NCBI GenBank assembly: GCA_002269645.1
Contig: NIVC01002786.1
Location: 1-64,000 of the forward strand
Origin: Macrostomum lignano
Lineage: Eukaryota
Length of the DNA: 64,000 bases
Direction: 5' to 3'
Below the pieces are notes generated by a model, which was not told the origin of the DNA, searched no databases, and worked only from the letters and a program-made list of their open reading frames with translations. A program made the position numbers and the translations under genes. Shown here piece by piece: positions 1-63,529 of the stretch (position 1 is its first letter; each line of letters opens with the position of its first letter).

Positions 1-1732
<1,732 letters not shown>

Positions 1733-1905
1733 AAGCCGATCGCGCTGAGTCGGAGAAAACAAATTTCATCTTGTCAAAAGCGTTTAACGAGTCCTAATTC
1801 AACTGTCCAAGGAAATAAATAATGGGAATACTTCTGCTGATGATTGTGATCAGCGCAGCATTGCAAGAAAAGACAAAATTGTGACGCGTGAAACTCCAAT
1901 TCCAG

Positions 1906-2091
1906 AAAAGCAAAGTATCGAGCTTGGTCAGCCGCCAGTGCCTCAGCGCCTGCCTTCAGGCCATAGACTCCAGTGGCAACGGGCAGCACTGTTGCCAAGG
2001 AAACCTGTGCAACTCCGCTGAGCGACTGCCCGGCCTCTCCTGGTTGCTGCTGCCAGCCGCCGCCCTGGCCGCCATCAGCTGCAGACAGTAG
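1906..2091 (+). CDS. Terminal exon of a Ly6/uPAR (three-finger, quiver/sleepless-like) GPI-anchored protein
   Basis: Acceptor ttccag|AAA at 1905/1906, phase 0. Translation KSKVSSLVSRQCLSAC...HCCQGNLCNSAERLPGLSWLLLPAAALAAISCRQ* has the Ly6 CCxxxxCN motif followed by a hydrophobic GPI-signal-like tail. Upstream exons were not identified. Confidence 0.62.
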   Translation, partial: KSKVSSLVSRQCLSACLQAIDSSGNGQHCCQGNLCNSAERLPGLSWLLLPAAALAAISCRQ

Positions 2092-2469
2092 GGCTGTCAA
2101 CTCGTTTGGCAATCGGTCCCATTACTGTTAACTAGACTGTATGCACATTTATATATATATATATATACTCATGCAATTGCAAATGATTTAAAAGAGCAAA
2201 ATAAGCCCATACATAATTACTCGAACGCCAGACACTTTTTACTCACAAAGATTTATTAAATATACCAAAAAACAGAGAAACAGCACCTGTCTGTTACTAC
2301 TATTAGTATAATGATATGACAAAACGGCAAAATTAGCCAATAACTGTTTTTAAAGGCAGCTTAAAACAAGAGTAAAATATTAAGTAGATCACAGATAAAC
2401 AATTGGCAAAGTAGAAGTGCTGCATTATATTAACAAAAATGCAATAAATCACTTGGCCCAATAGAAGAG

Positions 2470-2955
2470 GGCCGTGGCCCAGGCTCGATTCCAAGTGCAG
2501 TTTAAATTAATTTGGGTCTAAATTGGAATCTCAGCTTGGCTCTGCTCCCAAGGCACAGTGAAGTGTACATGTCTAATGACTAATGAAGTCAGGGCCGCTG
2601 TACACTCCTGTGTGATTGTGTAATTTGATTTGATTGGACGAGGAATGGGGTGGGTGAACTGATTGGTCATTTGCGTAGAGAGTATGATGTACATTGATTA
2701 CGCGTGGCGAGGGACAGTTGAACTGAAAATCAGATAAGAGAATAGGCGAGTCTATATCTTAGTCATAAATTTTTAATTAGTTTAATTTAAAATCATAGCA
2801 GTATGCCTGCTTTTATCAATTAGAAAAATCTGCCAGTGGAGTCACCGAATGGTGTAATAATGACCGTTTTGACTTGTCATTGTGTTTAGGTAAAAGTTTT
2901 TTACATTGTCGCTCACAGTGCGCCAGGTTGCATACAGCCCCCTGCCTCTAATAAA
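2470..2955 (+). mobile_element. 5'-truncated, interrupted copy of a tRNA-derived SINE
   Basis: 2470-2610 aligns by eye with 12185-12350 (B-box-like GGCTCGATTCC, then ctcagcttggct...cagtgaagtgtaca). 2915-2955 matches the 3' end (cccctgcct.taataaa) of the 12141 copy. Confidence 0.6.
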
Positions 2956-3047
2956 GTACTCGTAGCCCAATAAAAGTGCCCCGAAACCCAGTAGAGTTCA
3001 GGAGTCCGGCACAGGCATGAGCAGCTCGTGCGTAGTTGGCGACGGTG

Positions 3048-4950
3048 TCAGAGCTCGGGCAGCAGCGGCGCTCCCGCTGTCAGCGTCTTTGAATACCGAC
3101 GGCGGCGAGGGCGTCCGCGGCGGCAGTTGCCAACGCCTTGAGGCGGCGGCGGTGGCGAGCGTGGCCGCTCATCAGCAGCTGCAGCGAGTTTATCTTCATC
3201 GTCTGAAAATTATGTTATGGATGCCTGATGTACTCAATCAGTTGAGAAATGGAATAGAGTTTAGAAAACCCCCTTTTAAAGGCTCGTGATTCGTGCATTA
3301 GCGAAACTGCTAATTGAAATCCAATAAACGTCCTTTGCACTTAGCCTGTCGAATTTAAAATTTTTTATCTTTTTGAAATGAGCTAACGACCCAATCTATT
3401 ACTTGTAACAACCATGGAAACAGAGCCGCTAGAGAAGCTGACGAATAAAAGAATTAAATCACTCTTAGACGAACTTTTGAGCTGGCAGCTTTAAATGAAG
3501 CCTGTTAAAAAACTCACTGAATTCGCATTGGGAAAACATTCTCGCGTATTTACTGTTAGTAGTAAGTTAAAAATATACACGAAAATATCATTGCTGAGGC
3601 AATGGGGATTATAAAATAGTGAAGCTGCTGTAAGATTGCAATAGAACACATTACTGGATAGTAAATCTTAACATTGATGTCTGATAGGGAACTGGGTCAG
3701 GTGGGATCTTGGGCAGGTGGGAACTGGGTCAGATGGGAACTGGGTCAGGTGGGAACTGGGTCAGGTGGGAACTGGGGCAGGTAGGAACTAGGTCAGGTGG
3801 GAACTGTGTCAGGTGGGAACTGGGTCATGTGGGAACTGGGTCTTGTAGGAACTAGGGCAGGTGGGAACTGAGTCAGGTGGGAACTGGGTCATGTGGGAAC
3901 TGGGTCAGGTAGGAACTAGGGCAGGTGGGAACTGGGTCAGGTGGGAACTGGGGCAGGTGGGAAATGGGTCAGGTGGGAACTGGGTCAGGTGGGAACTGGG
4001 GCAGGTGGGAAGGGGCAGGTAGGAACTGGGTCAGGTGGGAACTGGGTCATGTGGGAACTGGGTCAGGTAGGAACTAGGGCAGGTGGGAACTGGGTCAGGT
4101 GGGAACTGGGGCAGGTGGGAAATGGGGCAGGTGGGAACTGGGGCAGGTAGGAACTAGGTCAGATGGGAACTGGTTCATGTGGGAACTGGGTCAGATAGGA
4201 ACTAGGTCAGGTGGGAACTGGGGTAGGTGGGTACTGGGGCAGGTAGGAACTGGGGCAGCTGAGGAGCAGCGATCTTTTTAGGTAGAAACGTATTCTAATA
4301 GAGCATAAAAAGTTTAACGTGCTGCGTGTAGGAGGCATGAAAGCAATCATAAAATTCTAGCTTTATATTCTTAGCAAATAGGCTCTCTAAAAATTTCATA
4401 AAACGCTTGGAAATTATAATTCGATCAGCCGCGCAAGCTCGTAAAAACAACAGGATGTTACAAAAATGCATTATTAGTAAAAAGAAAAGTTAAGACAAAA
4501 TGCGTCGACTTGAATTTTTGTAACCACTTTTTTTGCTAAAAATACTGCTATTAAATCGCGGACAAACAAAAAGAAGAAAACATTAAATATTACAGCACTA
4601 AGTGCAAGCACGAGGCATCAGCCAATGAGAGACGACTACGAAGTGAGGTGGGTGCAAGCACGAGGTATCAGCCAATGAGAGACGACTACGAAGTGAGGTG
4701 GGTGCAAGCACGGGTATCAGCCAATGAGAGATGACTACGAAGTGAGGTGGGTGCAAGCACCGGTTGTCAGCCAATGAGAGACGACTATGGGCACATGAAA
4801 GAGACAGGCCTAGGCAAAGGAGCTTTTAAGCAGCCTGTGCACCGCATGGCCAATGCTAGATCTTTTGACCGCACTGGCGGCCGACTTCTGCTGGTGGTTT
4901 TGCCGTCGGCGCGGCGGCACCCTGTTGTCGCCAAAGAGGTGAAAATCTGC
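3048..4950 (-). CDS. Candidate terminal exon(s) of the RGS12-like gene (phase-1 acceptors at ~4950 and 3202)
   Basis: ttgcag|AT TTT CAC gives (D)FHLFGDNRVPP...SSFA*. tttcag|AC GAT GAA gives (D)DEDKLAAAADERPRSPPP...PEL* (3202-3048). Both are phase-compatible with the donor at 5255; which is used is unresolved. Confidence 0.35.
3685..4256. repeat. 16-bp minisatellite (GGTGGGAACTGGGTCA)n
   Basis: Direct tandem units visible. Confidence 0.93.
4605..4790. repeat. ~50-bp tandem repeat, ~3.7 copies, each containing TCAGCCAATGAG
   Basis: Units start near 4605, 4655, 4705 and 4754. Confidence 0.85.
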
Positions 4951-5255: not shown

Positions 5256-8200
5256 CGACAAAGTCCTCCTTGGGCAGGGCGCACAGGCGGAGGCCGTCAA
5301 CGCAGTCAACCGGAGCGTCCAGGCCCAGCGGCACGAAGCCGGACTCGCGGCAGACCACGAGCCGGTCCAGGCGGAGGCCGTACCGACCGCACACCGGGCG
5401 CAGCACGTCACGCAGCGATTTGGCTGGCCGAGCTCGGACACCGACGCACCGGCCGGCTGGGGCTGGCAGCTCTAGCCGGAACAGAACTCGCCGTTCCATC
5501 CGGATTTGCCGGCCAGCGAACGCCGACAGTGGAGCGTCCAGACCGCCGCTGCCGCTGACACCGTCGGGCTCGTCGTCGTTGAGCACGCGGACTTCAGCGG
5601 CGGCAAAGTTGAGGCCGCGCCGTTCGCAGAGATCTAGCAGGGCCTCGCGCAGGCTGCGCTGCTGCTGGCCGGCTGCGCCGCGAACGTCCAGCAGAGCCGA
5701 GGAGCCGTCAGCCAGCTGAACGCGGCAGCAGCCCGCAGCGGTGGGCAGCGCTGATGCAGACGGAGGTGACGGTGACCGAGATCCGTGCTGCTGCTGCTGA
5801 TCGGAGTGGCGTCTCAGCGTGCGGCCTGTATAAACAATTGTTTAATAAGTTTTAGTAGCCAAAAATTTACACAATTTTTAATTCCTAGTAAAAGGGGCCT
5901 TCCGAAATAAGCGCTAAGAAGCGATTGGAATTTAAATAAAATTAGGACTCAAATTTGGGATTAAAAACTAAGAAGTAGGGATCAAGATTCCGAGAGCAGG
6001 GATTGGGAATCTGAAAGTAGGGATCGGGACTGAGAGTAGGGATCAGGACTGAGAGTAGGGATCAGGACTGAGAGTAGGGATCAGGACTGGGAGTAGGGAT
6101 CGGGACTGAGAGTAGGGATCAGGACTCTGAGAGTAGGGATCAGGACTCTGAGAGTAGGGATCAGGACTGGGAGTAGGGATCGGGACTCTGAGAGTAAGGA
6201 CCGTGGCAAGGCCAGCTCACCGCGAACCAAGCTCGCCAAGAAGCCGCGCCGCTTGGCCCCGCCGCCGTTGTCGAGAGTCTCGGCCCCGATAGTCAACGGT
6301 CGCTGTTGTCGCTGTGCTGCGGCCGCGGCCACAGCCTCCCGGTAGCAGCTGGACTTGAGGAACCTGGCGTAGCTGTCCATCCGCATCAGATCGTAGATGT
6401 GCCGCTGCGCCTTGTCGAACGCGTGTCGACTTGGCGGCGGCCGACTGGCGTCCAGAATATCGGCGCGAAGCTGCTCAACCGTGGCGCCGTCCAGATTGAC
6501 GCACTGCGGCGCGTTGATGCCGATGAAGTCGTATACTATGCGGGCGGCTTCGGTTGACAGCTGCGGATGGGAGCAGCGCATCCGACACTATTTTCCAGTG
6601 ACTGCTGGGTTTCCACCGGAGTTTCCCGATCCCAATTTTTAAGCCCTGATCATAAAATCCGAACTCATAAGTCACCGGTCCTAACTCTCTGACTCCCGAT
6701 CCCAACTATTTGAGTCTAAATCCCAACTATCGAAGTCCCCATCCAAACTAATGGAAGTCCCGATCCCAATTAACGGAAGTTCCGATCCCAACTAACGGAA
6801 GTCTTGATCCAAATACCAAAGTCCCGATCCCTACTATCGACGTCCCGATCCCTACTATCGACGTCCCGATCCCAACTATCGACGTCCCGATCCCAACTAT
6901 CGACGTCCCGATCCCAACTATCGACGTCCCGATTCCAACTATCGACGTCCCGATCCCAACTATCGACGTCTCGATCCCAACTATCGACGTCTCGATCCCA
7001 ACTATCGACGTCTCGATCCCAACTAACGGAAGTCCAAATCCCAACTAACGGAAGTCCCGATCCCAACTATCGAAGTCCCGACCCCAACTATCAAAGTCCT
7101 GATCCCAACTATCAAAGTCCTGATCCCAACTACTAAAGTCCTGATCCCAACTACCAAAGTCCCGATCCTAGCTATCGAAGTCCCGATCCCAACTAGCAAA
7201 GTCCCGATCCCAACTATCAAAGTCCTGATCCCAACTACTAAAGTCCTGATCCCAACTATCAAAGTCCTGATTCCAACTACCAAAGTTCCGATCCCAACTA
7301 GCGAAGTCCCGATCCCACTACTCATCCCCAGCCCCGAACTCACTGCCTCCTGGTCCTCAATCGCCCTATACCGCTCAACAGCCAGCCAGAAGGCGACATT
7401 CTCTTCGCTGAACTCGCCGCGCAGAAATTCGGCGAACAGCTTGACGCCAGTCGGGTCGGCCAGCAGGCGGTCCAGCCCGGCCGACCAGTCGGAGGGACCG
7501 CCAGTGGCGGCTGTATCGTCGATGGCGTCGGGCGCATCAACGACGCCGGAGCCGAACGCCATCGCCGATTGGGGCCGGCGGCGCAGCAGCGGCGGCGGCG
7601 CCGGGACGAATTTGGCGCCGATTCCCGTACCGACGCCGAAGTCGCCGCCGCTGCGTCGGCGCTGATTGTCGGCAACGATTGGCGGCGATTCGGCGTCATC
7701 GGAGGAGGCGCTGCTGGCCAGATTCTGCGGTATGGAGAGGCGAGGCCGCTGGCTTTACTTAATTAGTTACCTAGCGTTAATTTGTAATTGCTTTTTAAGT
7801 GAGACATATTAGTTAAAAGGTCAGCTATGAGGGAAACTAGCTCTTCGGCATTGGACACTTGCTGCCTGATGCGCAAAAAAAGCGGCAGTTTTCTCCGCTT
7901 TACAATAATAACACTACCTCATATCATTCTGTCAGCTAAGATTTGGTTTCTTCAGTGGAGTTCAAGTCAGTGGAGCTCCAGTTAAATAGAATCCCAGTCA
8001 GTGAAATCACAGTTAGGAAAATTCCTGACAGTGGAATCCAATTAGGGGAATCCCAGATAGGAGAATCCTGTTAGGAGAATCCCAGCTAGGGGAATCCCAG
8101 CTAGGGGAATCCCAGCTAGAGGAATCCAGTTAGGGGAATTCCAGTTAGGAGAATCCCAGCTAGGGGAATCCAGCTAGAGGAATCCAGCTAGGGGAATCCC

Positions 8201-15382: not shown

Positions 15383-18300
15383 TCACTGATCAACATTTCC
15401 GGAAGTGTTGCTGGAACTGCCAACCGGATCTCTGCTGCTCATCGCCTGCTGGAGAATTCTGTAGCTCTCAGACTCGGTCGAGAATGGATTTCCCTGCAAG
15501 GGAGTGGCAATTGCTGGCATTTGATTGTACACGGATAACTAGTACTACTGCAGCTAGATGATCGAGACCCTCAGCAGCATATTTGCCTGTAAGCTACTAC
15601 CAGCTCAGTAGTAATGAAACATTTTCAAGCATTTTTATAAAGACACGGCTTATTCATTGGCTCTACCAACATCGCGTCTTTTTACACAGAATCTCTACCC
15701 CAGGTGCCCCACCGCCCATGCAATTTTATTGCCTTCTTCAATGCTCCAGCCTAAAGCTGCAATGTACATTTCAGTGAACTAGCTAATGTACATTATGGCT
15801 GAACGCGAATTAGCAAGTTTGTTTACGCCTGCAAGCTAGCGCCCTGCAGATAAAGACCTGTCTAGAGGCTCTCAGGAGAGCGCAAGGGCGCGCTTGTCGC
15901 ACGATCATGAGCGCCCCTCCGTCTGCTCCTTACGATGGCCTCAACGCCTTCCTCAACATTCCTCCGCTGGACATCTTTGTCCGCAGGGAAGCGGCTAAGA
16001 CTGCCCGCCGTCTAGCTGACGCTGGCATTCGAATCCAGCCCCATAGGGCCATGGCTAAGCGCAAGCTTCTGCCCCACGCTGACCTCTGCCTCAAGGACTT
16101 GAGAGACAGCGGCGGGCTCCACGTCCTATCTGACGGCGAACCCCGCACTCTCAACCTCTTTCAGCGCTACAAGGTCACCATCCCCTCTAGGGATGCTGCC
16201 AATGACCACTGGAATTTCCAGGAGGTCCATTGCTACACGGACGGATCCATCAAAGACGGTCGCGCCGGCTTTGGGGTCTGCATCATCATCAACGGCCGCG
16301 TAATTGCCACGCATGCCCAGCACACTGGTAGACTCTCCACAGTCTTCCAGAACGAAGTCCTTGCCATCAGCTCTTGCGCTGCAGAGCTAAACGCCAAGGT
16401 TACGAGAGGAAAGACTATTGTCATCCACTCCGACAGCCAAGCGGCCTTACAGGCCCTTTGCCACACCACAACGAACTCCCGGACAGTCGCCGACTGCGCC
16501 CGGCAGCTCAACCTCCTGGCCAGAAGCAATACTGTCAGGCTGAAGTGGATCCCAGGGCACGCAGGGTTTCCGGGGAACGAGCTGGCAGACACCCTCGCCA
16601 AGAGGGGCGGCTCTGGCTCTTTTTTCGGCCCTGCCCCCCTGGTCCCTATGCCCTTGACAGTCATCAATCGTCAGATCGACGACTGGGCTGACTCCCTCCA
16701 CAGGGACAGATGGGCGGGCACCCAAAACTGCCGGCAATCTCGTGCCGCGGTTCCTTGCCCGTCTCACAGGCTCAGAAACATCCTTCTGAACCAGAATCGG
16801 AAGGATATTCGAGCCCTTGTCATGACCCTTACCGGCCATGGCTACCTCGCCAGGCACTGCTTCCTCCGAGGCGACCTCGAGAGCGAAATTTGCCCCTTTT
16901 GCGAGTGCGACAATGAAGATGCTCAGCACTTTGTCTGTCACTGCCCTTTCTTTAACAGAGACCGGCTACGCTACCTCGGGCCGAACCCGTCCATTGACGA
17001 GGTTTGCCAGCCCGACAGCATCCCACGGCTCATCCAGTTCCTTCGGGCGACTAGACGAGCCAGTTTCTTCCCAACGGAAGATCACGCTGCAGGACGGACC
17101 GGCGGACCACCCTGACCGGCCCCACGCCTCTGCCTGTCTGCGGGCCTTCAGGGGCTAGCGGAATGGGCGACCCTCGCCTCCCCGCTGTGTCTACGGACCA
17201 CCCTGCAGCTAAGTCAAGTCAAGTCAAAGTCAAGTAAGGCCCCACCGCCCATGCAATTTTATTGCCTTCTTCAATGCTCCAGCCTAAAGCTGCAATGTAC
17301 ATTTCAGTGAACTAGCTAATGTACATTATGGCTGAACGCGAATTAGCAAGTTTGTTTACGCCTGCAAGCTTGGGTTTTAAACTTATCAAAGTCATTTCAG
17401 CTGGCTTTATTTTTACAAAATAGCTTATGTATTCTTCATAGCTACTGAACTAAAAGTAGACAGAGAACTGAGAGTCGGTGAAAGTCGGCTTGAAACTTAA
17501 AATCAAATTCGAATAAAATTTCAAAAAAATGTCAGGATAAGATCATAGTGGGGGACTTTACAGCTTCCGTCTCACCTGTAGCAGAAGCTTCATCAGTCCC
17601 GTGCCGTTCACCTTCTGCTTGCTCATGTAGGCCAGCTGGTAACTGACGGCCGTCTTCCACTGCAGCACGCCTTTGTCCGTGATCAGGTTTCCTGCAAGCA
17701 AGATAAAGATTGAGCAGGGTTTTTGTGTCAGCGCGTGGCATGATGATGAGATATACCAACTTATCCTGAATTTTGACACCGAATGCCATATATTGGCACT
17801 CAGTTAATTCCAAGCTGTTTAATTTAGATTTCATATTTTCTGTAATTCCATATTTCATTTGAAGCGTTAATAGTTTTATACTTATTGTCTTACACTCGAT
17901 TTTCTTAGAAATGAGAGCTGGAAGCCAATATAGAACGTTTAAAGAAGTATATAACCTTTATGGCAGAAGGCAAATGGCAGAGAAAGGATGAGGACGCGGT
18001 TCTCAAGCCTTAGATAAACGCGTCCAAAGTTTTTTGCCATAGACACCAAAAGAACAGGCAAAGATTATTGGTATAGATCATTGTATACTTAATCTACAGA
18101 TGTCAGAAGCCCCATCACATAAGCGTCTATGGCCAAGCCTCACTAAAACGAAGCCTGAGAACTCGAAACGAGGCCAATTAACCAGTTGACAGGACCAGTT
18201 GACATCTAATTTGGTCCAACAAGCATCAATTTGGTCCAAACACTCGTAAGCCATTCGGGAAATTCTTGCCTTCTCGCAACCGTCTGCAGGTTGTTGCGTA

Positions 18301-53924: not shown

Positions 53925-54235
53925 AAGATGCTTGCTATCTGGGGGGATGCTTGCTATCAGGGGGGATGCTTGCTATCAGGGGCCGGGATGCTTGCTATCA
54001 GGGGATGCTTGCTATCTGGGGGATGCTTGCTGTCTGGGGGATGCTTGCTGTCTGGGGGATGCTTGCTATCAGGGGATGCTTGCTATCTGGGGGATGCTTG
54101 CTGTCTGGGGGATGCTTGCTGTCTGGGGGATGCTTGTTATCAGGGGATGCTTGCTATCTGGGGGATGCTATCTGGGGGGATGCTTGCTATCTGGGGGATG
54201 CTTGTTATCTGGGGGATGCTATCTGGGGGGATGCT
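53925..54235. repeat. ~17-bp satellite (GGGGATGCTTGCTATCT)n, left part
   Basis: Continues in the same orientation at 58626 after the inserted element. Confidence 0.93.
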
Positions 54236-55031
54236 ACTACGTAATGCGCAGATAGAGCAGGGTTTTCAGGCAGATTTGACGCAAAAAACGCAAATTATAC
54301 TACTATCTGAAAATGAAGTAAGTAGTATACAAAAACGCTATCCTAAGCGTGATGTGGCAATATGTAGTTGTAATAATCCATGTGCTCATATTAATACCAT
54401 GTACATTAATCCCTATCTATCTCAAATTGTACATTAATTCCATGTACATTAATCCCTATCCCAAATTGTCTATCCCCAATTCTATATGTACATGTGCATT
54501 AATCTACAGTGTCATCCCCAGCGCGCGCGCACCAACATTACATGTACAATGCTACATGTACACAGAGGCGAGAATTACTAATCTCATCTACTACCAAATG
54601 AGTCAACTAACCGTGTAGCGTACATCATGTATAAGTATTTACAATGAAGATATATTTACATTTAATCAGTAGCATATTACAGGAAATAATTTATGTACAG
54701 CATTACCAGCAAATAGAATATACAGAAAATTTTACATTGTTTTTCATTAATTTTCTTTTCATAAATAATTTTAAACAAGTTTGACACGCAAAATATGTAC
54801 AATAGATTTTTACATTGGCAATTTCGCTGCATACAATACAAAAATGCTTTATGTACATTTGTATAGTAGTATGTAACTCTTCATTAATTTAACATGCAAA
54901 ATATGTACAACAATAAATAGATTTTACTCAGTCAAATTTAACAAGATATTTATTAAGCAAGGGCCACATTATTTATAACCATAAGGCCTGCTGCAGGCCC
55001 CGTACACGCGCTTCGTCAGGACGCGCTGAAA
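54236..55031 (+). repeat. Left terminal inverted repeat (796 bp)
   Basis: Reverse complement of 57830-58625 with no differences seen by eye. The identical 89-aa spurious ORFs at 54349(+) and 58243(-) corroborate this. Confidence 0.95.
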
Positions 55032-55056
55032 GGCTCCCAAAGTGAAAGCTTCGACT

Positions 55057-57892
55057 ATGCCATACGTGTTCTACGATACGGAAACATACACGGACGAGGA
55101 GAAGCAGCATCACGTGCACCTGGTGACTGCCGTCACGTGCTGCGAGACCTGCTCCGGCCGGGCGTTTCCGCGCGAGACTTGCCGCCTCTGCAATGGCCTG
55201 CATAGCGCCGCCAATTGTCTGACTGGCCGCGATCTGGGGGAGGAATTCTCCAATTGCGTCAGCCACTCAGACTGCGCCTGCCAAATGGCCGATTTTGTGG
55301 CTGTGGGCCCGGCCTCGCTGAATGCGTTTTTCACCTGGCTGAGCACAGCTTTCCGAGGCGGCGCCATTGTTGTAGCGCACAATGCATCAGGCTACGATTC
55401 GTTCCTACTGCTTGGCGCTCTACTCAACGGCCTGGCCAAGAAGCGGCCACAAGTACTGTTCCAGGGCAGCCGGCTAATGAGCATGACGGTGGATAAATTG
55501 GTATTTAAAGATTCATTAAATTTTATACCAATCCCGCTTGCGCAATTCCCCAAAGCTCTGGGGCTCGCTAACACAAAGCTGGCCAAGGGGACCTTTCCCC
55601 ACGAGTTTAACAAGCCGGCTAATTGGAACTACGTTGGCCCCTACCCGGCTATTGAATATTATGGCGGCAAAGCGAACAAGGACTATGACTCAATCTGTGC
55701 TTGGCTAGCCTCGCGACAGGGCGAGTTGTTCAACTTTAATCGGGAATATCTCGATTATTGTTTGAGCGACACAGTCCTGCTTCGCGAGGGCTGCATCAAG
55801 TACAGGGCAATAATTGGTGAAATTTGCGACGGCCTGGAACCGTTTGTTCAGGCCAATACGATTGCCAGTTTGGCAATGGCCGTTTTCACCACCCGGTTTA
55901 TGGAGCCCAACTCGGTCGGCGTGATTGCCCGGCAGGCCGACCAGCAGTCGTTCAAGGCGCGCAAGTGGCTGGCCTATTTGAATGCCACCGAATTTGGCGG
56001 GCGGCTGCGAACCTGCGACTCGACTGGCGGCGAGGCTGTCATTCTCGGCCGCAAGGTGGACGGCTTCGATGAGGCGAGCAACACTGTTTTGCAGTTTCAT
56101 GGCTGTTTCTACCATGGCTGCGAGCAGTGTATGCCCGATCAGGATGTCGTCCACCCGCTCAAACGGCAGCCTCTGAGCCATATTCGCCACGAGACTGAGT
56201 GGTTCACTCGCGAGTTGGAGCGGCACAATTACAGTGTTCGAGTCATTTGGGAGCATGAGTACGACACTGTATTGGCGTCGCAGGCCGACTTTATCGCCGC
56301 AACTGCACATCTGCGCGCTCCGCTCAAGATGGAGGATGCGCTCTACGGTGGCCGCGTAGAGTGCTTTATCCCGCATGCTGTGGCCAGCGAGACTGAGACT
56401 CTCAAATATCGGGATGTGGTGAGTAGCGATACTACTAATATAGTAGAATATTTTGCAAAAAATACAGTTTATGAAAAAAAAATAATGCTTTATTTCAACT
56501 GGCAGGTCTCTCTGTACCCGACGGTGCAGTCGAAAGACCCATACCCGATTGGCCACCCGGTGCAACATCCGACGCCGCAAGTGCTCGATTCTGACGCGCT
56601 GGCTAGCTACTTTGGCATTGCCAAGGTGACAGTGCTGCCGCCGTCAGATTTGCACATTCCGCTGCTGCCCTACAGGGTGCAAAAGAAGCTCTTTTTTGGG
56701 CTTTGCCGCACCTGTATGGAGCAGCAGTGCGGCGAGTGCTGCGACCACTCTGACCAGCAGCGGGCACTGACTGGTACCTGGGCAACGCCGGAGCTGCGGA
56801 AGGCCTTCCAGTTGGGCTACCGGCTGCAGGCGGTGCACGCGCTGGCCTACTGGACAGAGAAGCGGACCGGTCTGTTCAGTGACTATGTCAGCACCTTTCT
56901 CAAGCTGAAGGCTGAGTCGAGCGGTTCCCCCGGCATGTCGGATGAAGACAAGGCCGCCTACATTGCCGATTTTTACGCCAAGGAGGGCGTCACGCTGGAC
57001 AAGGTCGAGCCCAACCCAGGACTTCGCTTTGTAGCGAAAATCTTTTTGAATTCGTAAGTATTCATAAATTTTTGTATTTTAAATGATTTTCTTCTTCTAC
57101 TAACAGTAGCACTTCTTTTCACAACACACAGGCTCTGGGGCAAATTTTGTCAGCGTGATGACCTGACATCGACAGAAATTGTATCCAGCTACGAGGACTG
57201 GCTCGCCCGGCTGACCGACCCCAACCTCAAAGTCAAGGCCTGCGAACCGATTGGCAGCGAGTTTATGCTGCTAGAGTACCGGCACCGCTATTTTAATCAG
57301 CGGCCGTTCCGGTACTCCAATGTGCCAATCGGGGTCTTTACGACCACTCAGGCCCGGCTGCGCCTGTATGAGGCATTGGAGGGGCTCGGCGAACGGGCCA
57401 TTTACTGCGACACTGACTCGTAAGTATTGCATTGGGAAAATTATTTTAGAATTGATTACATGTAAATAGTTAGCAATTATCTCGTTTTCTCTCCCACACA
57501 GGGTCGTTTACCGGCATTCCGAGGGCCAATGGGAGCCGCCCCATGGCACGAGCCTCGGAATGTGGACCGATGAGGTGCCCGCAGGCAGCCGGATGACCGA
57601 CTTTGTAAGTGGGGGGCCCAAACTCTACACTTACATTGTCGAGGATGCGGCCGGTGCCCGGAGTCAGGTCCTGAAGTGCAAGGGCATCCGCCTGACTCCG
57701 GAGATTCGGGAGCGCAGCGATGAATTGCGCAGTGCCCTACTACACGGCGGCTCCCTGCAGCTGCCGCAGCTTCAGTTTAGGCGCGACAAGGCGTCTTGTA
57801 CCATACACACAATCAATATGGACAAGACGTTTCAGCGCGTCCTGACGAAGCGCGTGTACGGGGCCTGCAGCAGGCCTTATGGTTATAAATAA
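55057..57892 (+). CDS. polB: Protein-primed family B DNA polymerase (Polinton pPolB), 4 exons, 862 aa
   Basis: Exons 55057-56418, 56506-57053, 57132-57419 and 57502-57892 sum to 2589 nt. ExoI FYDTET, ExoII AHNASGYD, ExoIII YCLSD, Vsr-like insert VDG...FHGCFYHGC, and the Polinton-typical LCRTC...GTW segment are present. After splicing, motifs A (RDVVSLYP), B (KIFLNSLWGKF) and C (YCDTDSVVY) and the GGPKLY motif are restored. Confidence 0.93.
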
Positions 57893-58625
57893 TGTGGCCC
57901 TTGCTTAATAAATATCTTGTTAAATTTGACTGAGTAAAATCTATTTATTGTTGTACATATTTTGCATGTTAAATTAATGAAGAGTTACATACTACTATAC
58001 AAATGTACATAAAGCATTTTTGTATTGTATGCAGCGAAATTGCCAATGTAAAAATCTATTGTACATATTTTGCGTGTCAAACTTGTTTAAAATTATTTAT
58101 GAAAAGAAAATTAATGAAAAACAATGTAAAATTTTCTGTATATTCTATTTGCTGGTAATGCTGTACATAAATTATTTCCTGTAATATGCTACTGATTAAA
58201 TGTAAATATATCTTCATTGTAAATACTTATACATGATGTACGCTACACGGTTAGTTGACTCATTTGGTAGTAGATGAGATTAGTAATTCTCGCCTCTGTG
58301 TACATGTAGCATTGTACATGTAATGTTGGTGCGCGCGCGCTGGGGATGACACTGTAGATTAATGCACATGTACATATAGAATTGGGGATAGACAATTTGG
58401 GATAGGGATTAATGTACATGGAATTAATGTACAATTTGAGATAGATAGGGATTAATGTACATGGTATTAATATGAGCACATGGATTATTACAACTACATA
58501 TTGCCACATCACGCTTAGGATAGCGTTTTTGTATACTACTTACTTCATTTTCAGATAGTAGTATAATTTGCGTTTTTTGCGTCAAATCTGCCTGAAAACC
58601 CTGCTCTATCTGCGCATTACGTAGT
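57830..58625 (-). repeat. Right terminal inverted repeat (796 bp), overlapping the last 63 nt of the polB CDS
   Basis: Complementarity to the left TIR extends into the codons for FQRVLTKRVYGACSRPYGYK*. Confidence 0.95.
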
Positions 58626-59350
58626 GATGCTTGCTATCTGGGGGATGCTTGCTATCTGGGGGATGCTTGCTATCTGGGGGATGCTATCTGGGGGGATGCT
58701 AGCTATCTGGGGGATGCTTGCTATCAGGGGGGATGCTTGCTATCAGGGGATGCTTGCTATCTGGGGGATGCTTGCTGTCTGGGGGATGCTTGCTGTCTGG
58801 GGGATGCTTGTTATCAGGGGATGCTTGCTATCTGGGGGATGCTATCTGGGGGGATGCTTGCTATCTGGGGGATGCTTGTTATCAGGGGATGATATGCGGT
58901 TGCTTACTCTTGGAGGGCGGTGCTTGCTATCTGGGAGATACTTGTTATCTGCGGGATGCTTGCTATCTGGGGAATGCTTGCTATCTGGGGGGGGGGTGCT
59001 TGTTATCAGGGATGCTTGCTATCTGGGGAATGCTTGCTATCTTGGGAATGCTTGCTATCAGGGGATGCTTGCTATCAGGGGATGCTTGCTATCTGGGGGA
59101 TGCTTGCTATCTGGGGAATGCTTGCTATCTGGGGGGGGGGGGTGCTTGTTATCAGGGATGCTTGCTATCTGGGGAATGCTTGCTATCTTGGGAATGCTTG
59201 CTATCAGGGGATGCTTGCTATCTGGGGGGGTGCTTGTTATCAGGGGATGATATGCGGTTGCTTACTCTTGGAGGGCGGTGCTTGCTATCTGGGAGATACT
59301 TGTTATCTGCGGCATGCTTGCTATCAGCTGGGGGATGCTTGCTGTCTTGG
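58626..59350. repeat. ~17-bp satellite (GGGGATGCTTGCTATCT)n, right part
   Basis: Same unit and orientation as 53925-54235. Confidence 0.93.
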
Positions 59351-62038: not shown

Positions 62039-63370
62039 TTAAAGCGGTTTCAGCCGTTCCAACTCCAATTCCAAGGCAATCCTTTGCTCGGTGACCTCCT
62101 TGAGCTCGACAGCCAGTTCATTGTTGAGCCTAACCAGGGTGTGATTCTTCTCTTTCTGAGCCTTCACCGCCGCTAGCAGGCGTTCCCGATTGGGCGGCTG
62201 GCCGGAGGCAACAGCGGCGGCGTCGGCAGCAGCGGCGGCAGCAGCAGCGGAGGACGCCAGCTGATAGCTGGCAGCTCGTGGCGGCACAGTCGGAGCGGAC
62301 GGGTCGGCGTGCTGTTGCAGGAGATGCTGCTGCTGATGCGCTGTCGGTTTCCTAGGGGTCGGATGAAGCACGCCAACACCGGTTGGAGGAATTCCGCCAA
62401 AGACTGACGGCTCCGGCGGCGGCTGCTGCTGGTGAATTGGCGGTGGCGGCGGCATCGTCGGAGGCGGCGAAGCCTCGTCCTGGTCGGACAGCGGCTCGTA
62501 GCCGGCAGCAACAGGGGGCAGCCTGTCGGGTATCGGCACATTGTTGCGCCTCAGCACGACCAGGTGCATCGCGGTGGAGAACTCGGCCAGGTTGAGCTGG
62601 CCGTCCATGTCGCGATCGGACAGGGCCCAGATGCGGGACAGCTCGGGCGGGGGCAGGCGGGACTTCTCAAAGAACTGCTTGGCCACTGGGCCGGTGATGC
62701 GGCCGGTGAGGCTGGGGCACAGGGTGAGGAATTGGTTGGCGTAGTACTCGCGCTGCTCGCGGGTCATGGCCAGCGGATCCGAGCTGTCCTCTTCATCCTC
62801 GAAGCCGCCAGCGCCGCCGCCGTTGCCCTCAACGTACTTGTGCCGGTCGTCGGGCGCGTCGCCAGCCTGGCTGTCGGAGTCGTCCGAATCCGACGTCGAA
62901 TCGTCATCATCGACATCGTCGCCGTCGTCGTTTTTGGATCCCCCGACGCCGCCTTCTGCCGAGGACGACGAGGCGGCCCGACGATGACGTCGGCGAGAGG
63001 CGCCGCGGCCGCCAGTGGATGCTGCGGCAGCGGTCGAGCCGGCCAAAGGCTCGCGGCCAGCGGCCGAGCCGCTGATGAGGCCAGTGTCCGAGTCGACGTC
63101 CGAGAAGTGGGCCCAGCCGCCGCCGCTGCCGCGCCCAGACTGGTCAGTGCCGCCGCCGCCGGCCCCGGGATCGGCGTCTTCGTCCGAGTGGCGCCGGACT
63201 CCGCCGCCGGCCTCGGCAGCGTCGACAACTCTAGGTGCTTCGTCGGCGTCGGCGCTAGAGGAGCCCGGCTTCAGTTTGGGCTTCGGTTTTGGCTTCGGCT
63301 GCGGCGGCGGTAGCGCCGAGCGGTCCAGACTGGCCGCCCTGGCGTCTCCAGGCGTGGCGGCGCCGGCGAC
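62039..63370 (-). CDS. REPS1: Terminal exon of a REPS1/REPS2-like EH-domain endocytic adaptor
   Basis: Acceptor cctaag|GTC at 63370, in frame. EH domain MTREQREYYANQF...AKQFFEKSRLP..ELSRIWALSDRDMDGQLNLAEF..AMHLV. C-terminal RalBP1-binding coiled coil KEKNHTLVRLNNEL..ELKEVTEQRIALELELERLKPL*. The 5' exons lie beyond the window. Confidence 0.87.
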   Translation of the reverse strand, partial: VAGAATPGDARAASLDRSALPPPQPKPKPKPKLKPGSSSADADEAPRVVDAAEAGGGVRRHSDEDADPGAGGGGTDQSGRGSGGGWAHFSDVDSDTGLISGSAAGREPLAGSTAAAASTGGRGASRRRHRRAASSSSAEGGVGGSKNDDGDDVDDDDSTSDSDDSDSQAGDAPDDRHKYVEGNGGGAGGFEDEEDSSDPLAMTREQREYYANQFLTLCPSLTGRITGPVAKQFFEKSRLPPPELSRIWALSDRDMDGQLNLAEFSTAMHLVVLRRNNVPIPDRLPPVAAGYEPLSDQDEASPPPTMPPPPPIHQQQPPPEPSVFGGIPPTGVGVLHPTPRKPTAHQQQHLLQQHADPSAPTVPPRAASYQLASSAAAAAAAADAAAVASGQPPNRERLLAAVKAQKEKNHTLVRLNNELAVELKEVTEQRIALELELERLKPL

Positions 63371-63529
63371 CTTAGGGGAGGGGCGTTTTTAAATGTGAGT
63401 TAAATAATAGTTACAATTTGCGCGCTTTTCTACTGAGCGGGACGAAGGCAGTAGAGGATAAAAAAATTTAATGTATCTGTAGTCTAAATGAGTCAGAATG
63501 ACAGTTTCTTCTCAAGCAATATCTGATTT

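Follow-up and report, generated by a model that had tools for sequence, protein, structure and literature searches.

The polymerase gene described here raises the question of why spliceosomal introns should lie precisely within catalytic motifs. It is found in 64,000 nucleotides of Macrostomum lignano DNA (contig NIVC01002786.1, positions 1 to 64,000, referred to below as the window), and three of its introns split the sites that we take to be polymerase motifs A, B and C. Animal Polintons have been described as lacking introns in their core genes, and spliceosomal introns as falling without regard to how conserved the protein is. The Macrostomum gene departs from the first description, and its intron sites, like those predicted in other lineages, lean towards catalytic motifs.

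The gene is carried by a 4,390-bp element (54236–58625) whose inverted arms are perfect over 796 bp. The element is inserted in an 18-bp tandem array and is flanked on both sides by a 6-bp target-site duplication (TSD), GATGCT; the left copy (54230–54235) lies inside the array and the right copy is at 58626–58631. The left arm (54236–55031) repeats the right end (57830–58625, terminus ...TACGTAGT) in inverted orientation without a mismatch, and includes the gene's final 63 nt. It stands where the 5' part of the element would be, joined through a 2-nt microhomology. The same insertion is found with the same flanks on contigs C4430 (L002/L024) and C3085 (L003/L025), where the left arm is 2.3 kb and a small inverted segment lies at the breakpoint, so the form in the window is either an allele or a variant of the assembly. 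The window also contains numerous tandem arrays, an RNase H ORF (15814–17115, + strand), an EH-domain exon (62039–63388, − strand) and an RGS-domain exon (7023–7754, − strand).

The element contains a single gene, for a protein-primed family B polymerase (pPolB), on the + strand. Its first exon (55030–56418, first ATG at 55057) is 5'-truncated and encodes the 3'-5' exonuclease, a VSR-like insertion (approximately 55945–56340) and the sequence up to motif A; the match to PF03175 (E 2.6e-28) identifies the protein as a protein-primed PolB. The second exon (56506–57053) runs from the second half of motif A to the first half of motif B, the third (57132–57419) from the rest of motif B to the DTD of motif C, and the last (57502–57892) ends with the stop codon, followed by AATAAA at 57907–57912. 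The first window exon is 100% identical to a UniRef entry that bears the name of Macrostomum lignano, and several of the exons have already been joined in automated UniProt models. The nearest named relatives outside Macrostomum are oyster proteins (35–36%).

When a profile of the family is compared with known structures, phi29 polymerase is the top match and the Vsr endonuclease structures 1vsr, 1odg and 1cw0 are matched at E 6–8e-5. These matches place the window polymerase in the pPolB2 group with a VSR insertion that Jeong et al. describe (10.1101/2023.08.22.554363). The VSR-like domain, which is located between the exonuclease and motif A, is a candidate nuclease matched at the level of the profile; the single sequence of the insertion, used without the family profile, did not match the Vsr structures. 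A single-sequence AlphaFold model of one exon was uninformative (pLDDT 32). Polymerases of this kind have a TP-vOTU domain order, as outlined in PMC11161782, and these two domains are missing from the window copy. Long copies in the genome are extended at the N terminus, and the extension contains the Cys and His that hardly vary in A1, an alignment of 59 outside pPolB proteins; the pairwise match is weak (E 0.015).

The preliminary description gave the three introns exactly, in coordinates, length and junctions. Intron 1 (56419–56505, 87 nt, phase 0, GTGAGT..GGCAG) splits motif A as RDV/VSLYP. Intron 2 (57054–57131, 78 nt, phase 2) splits the Ser codon of NS/LWGKF in motif B and contains a branch-like TACTAAC at 57098–57104. 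Intron 3 (57420–57501, 82 nt, phase 2) splits the Ser codon of DTDS/VVY in motif C. The introns have a GC content of 26–30% against 56–60% in the exons. A profile-to-DNA spliced aligner found all three to the base; it also made one spurious call, in frame, within the exonuclease.

Splicing was examined by aligning contigs from four runs presumed to be RNA (X1, X5, X6 and X16) to locus L079, a long copy whose three motif introns are identical to those of the window. Joints that skip exactly the 87 nt of intron 1 and the 82 nt of intron 3, with CT..AC ends on the opposite strand, are present in X1, X5 and X6, which come from three studies; the assembled contigs may derive from other copies than L079 or the window. 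Introns 1 and 3 are therefore spliced out exactly. No joint for intron 2 is among those listed for the four runs, and one X5 contig starts and stops exactly at the boundaries of exon 3. X16 gave no intron joints, although all 30 bins were covered, while X1, which may contain DNA, has both spliced and unspliced contigs.

The introns have GT-AG ends, a pyrimidine tract and lengths indifferent to the reading frame, and are ordinary major-spliceosome (U2) introns. They are not inteins, being short, AT-rich, non-coding segments that are removed from RNA and that contain no in-frame protein-splicing domain. A proto-splice bias is not evident in the window (exon ends GTG, TTC and CTC); AG directly precedes GT in several predicted introns of the outside lineages described below. 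Window introns 2 and 3 are both in phase 2, each interrupting a serine codon TCG, and resemble each other (0/200 shuffles were as good), the only similar pair among 15 intron pairs compared; this may reflect conversion, common origin or composition.

The window copy was compared with 29 related loci of the genome (family A), of which some represent the same insertion more than once. Among the loci that cover each site, 28/28 have intron 1, 29/29 intron 2 and 28/28 intron 3, with GT..AG kept in 78 of the 85 motif-intron copies. Indels inside the introns are many, and their lengths range from 66 to 116 nt in all three frames; intron 1 alone varies from 81 to 116 nt, so that its in-frame, stop-free state in the window is not conserved. 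Differences from the window amount to 2.1%, 1.1% and 10.5% at codon positions 1, 2 and 3 and to 8.0% inside introns, and the pooled exon pN/pS over the 29 loci is 0.095. The gene has multiplied together with its introns under purifying selection. The preliminary description allowed that the segments might be unspliced insertions that had inactivated the gene, which is ruled out by the spliced joints, the retention of the introns in all covering loci and the pN/pS value. It had also proposed that the polymerase depends on host splicing, and this is borne out by the joints and the frame-indifferent lengths.

A second family (family B) is 63–74% identical to family A over these exons. The full-length gene has six introns, and all five family B copies examined have them at the same six places and phases. 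Being common to both families, the motif introns are old. Orthologous introns of the two families have no sequence similarity; a recent introner burst at these sites can be rejected because the sites predate the A/B split.

In the window copy the 5' third of the gene is missing, the arm joining just before the exonuclease. No intron beyond the three is evident in this copy, as the preliminary description had noted, but the longer copies have three more, outside the polymerase motifs: one that is long and follows a short first exon, one of 69–79 nt whose joint is seen in X1, and a third within the vOTU region. Of ten family A stretches, 8, 7 and 10, respectively, have these introns, as do 5/5 family B copies. 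The earlier count of three introns out of three in motifs thus becomes three of six.

The bias was measured against a conservation scale derived from alignment A1. The three motif-intron sites are in the top 2–3% of conservation, with one site in the top 8% at the widest window of the scale. Six random introns do as well with a Monte Carlo probability of 0.002–0.003; a Fisher test over all six Macrostomum introns, with the three non-motif ones as misses, gives P 0.02–0.03. The earlier suggestion that such placement is unlikely by chance is upheld at these values.

An independent set was obtained by running the spliced profile aligner on 82 loci, comprising the best 80 of 455 metagenome matches and two of 25 viral loci. 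A scan of viral contigs with profile P0032 gave no loci; with A1 it gave the 25, of which only two contained full polymerases, both intronless. Over the 82 loci the aligner made 20 frame-breaking and 31 stop-free calls. Confident calls were frame-breaking, with an AT-rich interior and no frameshift nearby, and these criteria were chosen after the calls had been seen. On sequence alone, 12 calls in seven loci qualify as confident predicted introns, at ten sites in five lineages with a mutual identity of 30–46%; 75 of the 82 loci have no confident intron. The ten sites give a Fisher P of 0.001–0.002, and five to six of them are in the top conservation quartile; five are on one contig, L201. When seven doubtful sites and a single stop-free call are included (n=18), P is 0.0007–0.003, and a likelihood-ratio test over 14 sites gives P 1e-5. 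The remaining 30 stop-free calls resemble coding sequence in their GC content, are mostly at variable sites and were treated as coding inserts; any real introns among them would weaken the bias. A 60-nt stop-free call with a GTAAGT donor recurs in the vOTU region (profile position 204) of L148, L150 and L151, and may be a genuine intron that keeps the frame instead of inserted coding sequence.

The helix of motif B is split in four of six lineages within 12 codons (P 0.0007 under a uniform model, 0.013 when weighted by conservation). Three of these lineages are split within 6 nt, each at a different nucleotide. Motif A is split in two of the six, never at the same nucleotide, and all 14 alignable intron sites differ between lineages. 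In a tree built with FastTree only, from the 56 of 82 loci that were long enough, intron-bearing rows are scattered among intronless ones, and L187 and L211 each have an intronless sister (61% identical in the case of L187). Given this distribution, the gains in the outside lineages were probably independent. A single ancestral motif B intron that slid is unlikely, as the common ancestor of the intron-bearing rows spans 117/117 tips. The motif bias in Macrostomum survives these comparisons and recurs among the predicted introns of five metagenomic pPolB2 lineages. L201 is a Polinton with five to six predicted polymerase introns, capsid and protease genes that are each a single ORF, and a TBP-like gene directly 3' of the polymerase (37–3144, 3144–3701).

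The element that carries the gene differs from a typical Polinton. Polymerase-bearing long elements have terminal inverted repeats (TIRs) and are about 9.5 kb in family A and 8.9–9.1 kb in family B. The terminus pattern finds 133 family A ends in the genome; among pairs from the first 100 ends listed, 15/35 span 9.0–9.9 kb. A 6-bp TSD flanks eight of nine family A and the one family B polymerase-bearing elements with both ends, and 13 of 14 further elements with family A ends. The polymerase is absent from all 14. Five of them are palindromes of 9.1–9.6 kb, non-coding and almost perfect, with 6-bp TSDs (L099, L100, L101, L102 and L105, on G000 contigs C301, C657, C903, C982 and C2205). As they equal the polymerase-bearing elements in size, the palindromes suggest snap-back replication products under a length constraint.

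In 81 family A and B loci, two host Polinton integrase queries gave no tblastn match at E<0.05, though a split, diverged gene could escape this search; a search of the genome for integrase listed 115 places. Queries for host Polinton capsid (four), ATPase (two) and protease (one) also gave no matches in the 81 loci. Complete host Polintons end in AGTAGT (three elements; 3/15 locus pairs gave inverted ends), whereas families A and B begin with ACTAC, the reverse complement of AGTAGT ends (window 54236 and 58625; L061; L098/L081). Having a protein-primed PolB and 6-bp TSDs, with integrase and capsid genes not found, the carrier appears to be a Polinton-derived element rather than a complete Polinton. 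It probably replicates by strand displacement with snap-back products and is integrated in trans. The polymerase-only elements of about 9.5 kb and the palindromes point to an undescribed helper-dependent life style. Some family A elements have dUTPase and PC4-like genes (L045 3183–3995 and 5810–6334; L106 795–1316 and 2746–5645), and L106 also has a THAP/P-element-type transposase. Family A elements are in places nested in or beside one another (G000:C1485:44228-62496, C157:54556-88600).

Spliced motif introns that can be dated against intronless relatives make Polinton polymerases a compact test bed for intron origin and retention, and for whether a filter or targeting has placed the introns. 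The reading that we prefer, tentatively and with less than even confidence, is that introns survive selectively at invariant motifs and are then locked in, with no targeting. Host Pol II would transcribe the element's gene in the nucleus and the host spliceosome would splice it. The polymerase would start at the ends of the linear element and copy it with displacement of a strand, which would yield the snap-back palindromes as by-products, and an integrase from elsewhere would insert the element, giving the 6-bp duplication. An insertion in a variable loop could persist as additional codons or be lost through an imprecise deletion; one at an invariant motif would survive only if spliced out exactly and could be removed only by an exact deletion, and motif introns would pile up. 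They would be locked in because an element that copies DNA to DNA seldom goes through cDNA. This agrees with the bias at the ten outside sites, the absence of motif-intron loss in family A and the scatter of intron-bearing lineages among intronless ones; different positions at all 14 sites are what a filter predicts, and stop-free inserts mostly at variable sites are expected if loop insertions become protein. Against it, a test reported in PMC2814812 found spliceosomal introns to have no preference for conserved sites, unlike inteins and group I introns. Selective survival also requires many gains and losses, yet most outside loci have no confident intron; the motif B splits exceed general conservation even when weighted for it; and L201 and L157, loci found through their polymerase, have that gene split but keep capsid, protease or integrase genes as single ORFs. 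Loss at variable sites is not fast, since three of the six Macrostomum introns persist there.

The concentration in motif B and the restriction to the polymerase in L201 and L157 are what would be expected of a targeted origin, which is a close rival and quite possible. The introns would be either emptied spliceosomal homing introns or scars of site-specific cuts in motif-coding DNA, made by the nuclease of a homing intron or of a competing element, where a spliceable insertion is the only repair that both destroys the target and keeps the enzyme. A precedent for site-targeting mobile introns exists in the mirusvirus spliceosomal introns, which are described as gene-specific and as encoding HNH, GIY-YIG, VSR-like and PD-(D/E)XK nucleases (PMC12768974). 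A Vsr-fold homing endonuclease is described in PMC3239194, and the window polymerase has a predicted VSR-like domain, though as a nuclease this is a sequence-based candidate only. The likeness of introns 2 and 3 is also compatible with targeting. However, there is no ORF-bearing allele among the motif-intron copies (66–116 nt), 85 of them in family A and 15 in family B, and no nucleotide position is common to two lineages. The preliminary description drew a parallel with inteins, and PMC549080 does place PolB inteins at three conserved sites at the active site; its pol-c site, YGD/TDS, is 8 nt upstream of intron 3, so the parallel does not extend to the exact position. A broader and rather speculative version, somewhat unlikely as a whole, is that Polinton polymerase motifs are repeatedly cut by site-specific nucleases of homing introns, of rival elements or perhaps of their own predicted VSR-like domain. 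A spliceosomal intron would be the only change at an invariant motif that avoids cutting and leaves the enzyme alive, and the short introns would be fossils of spliceosomal homing in animals, on a polymerase-only element of about 9.5 kb whose palindromic non-coding siblings keep to the same length, as though some helper packaged them or copied them as its satellites.

Chance combined with ascertainment is improbable as the whole explanation. Six old introns could have three in motifs by luck, and introns that split motifs are those best noticed by readers and profile searches. The three poorly conserved sites in Macrostomum and the modest Fisher value over six introns allow for this, as do the one contig that supplies half of the outside sites, the fraction of these in the top quartile, the filter fixed after the calls were seen and the 30 of 31 stop-free calls set aside, some of which may be real variable-site introns. 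A frame-breaking intron, however, splits the ORF wherever it lies within the aligned span, and the signal persists with the doubtful calls and in the likelihood-ratio test. Even less probable is a licensing switch, proposed earlier, in which motif placement makes unspliced RNA yield a dead enzyme and so restricts replication to splicing-competent cells. The germline-restricted splicing of the P-element is an analogy; the polymerase cannot be made without splicing, and the mixed contigs of X1 would fit, allowing for possible DNA in that run. Licensing is unsupported as the reason for the placement because any frame-breaking intron licenses equally well: a stop or frameshift kills the enzyme at any position. 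Nor is the open state of intron 1 conserved, the intron interiors drift nearly like silent sites, and the splice sites are near consensus.

Several known systems share part of this arrangement. Animal Polintons or Mavericks with a VSR-bearing pPolB2 are described with a TP-vOTU-exonuclease-palm order, which the long copies may share, and with the same VSR-like insertion, TIRs and 6-bp TSD (Jeong et al.; PMC8097293), but the genes of intact vertebrate Mavericks are given as intronless (PMC8097293), against six introns here, and Polintons as 15–25 kb with integrase and capsid genes (PMC6431247), neither of which was found in the Macrostomum elements of about 9–9.6 kb. The mirusvirus introns, termed shintrons, likewise have GT-AG ends and a length of some 80 nt; they interrupt core genes of a DNA virus of the nucleus and are unevenly spread between genes (PMC12768974). 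They encode nucleases and are reported mostly from morphogenesis genes, whereas the Macrostomum introns are in the polymerase and are empty, with no nuclease ORF in any of the 100 motif-intron copies examined. Inteins and group I introns share the position in catalytic motifs and the logic of lock-in (PMC2814812, PMC549080), but are characterised there as self-splicing, nuclease-driven and at fixed allelic sites, whereas the Macrostomum introns are host-spliced and lineage-specific in position. The chlorovirus DNA polymerase has a spliceosomal intron too, but only one, in an RNA/DNA-primed PolB (PMC7019647). Dinoflagellate eupolintovirus introners are likewise intron-generating elements in Polinton genomes, but young and repeated (PMC12166617). 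A motif bias is not reported in the available text on either. Nothing on intron-split animal Polinton polymerases or motif bias was found in a literature search that covered few subscription journals and did not include Repbase. Lineages with an intron-split polymerase are missed by ORF-based searches. At least four further polymerase families in the Macrostomum genome have open frames of 1,125–1,478 codons, and several of these lie next to genes for integrase, capsid or ATPase.
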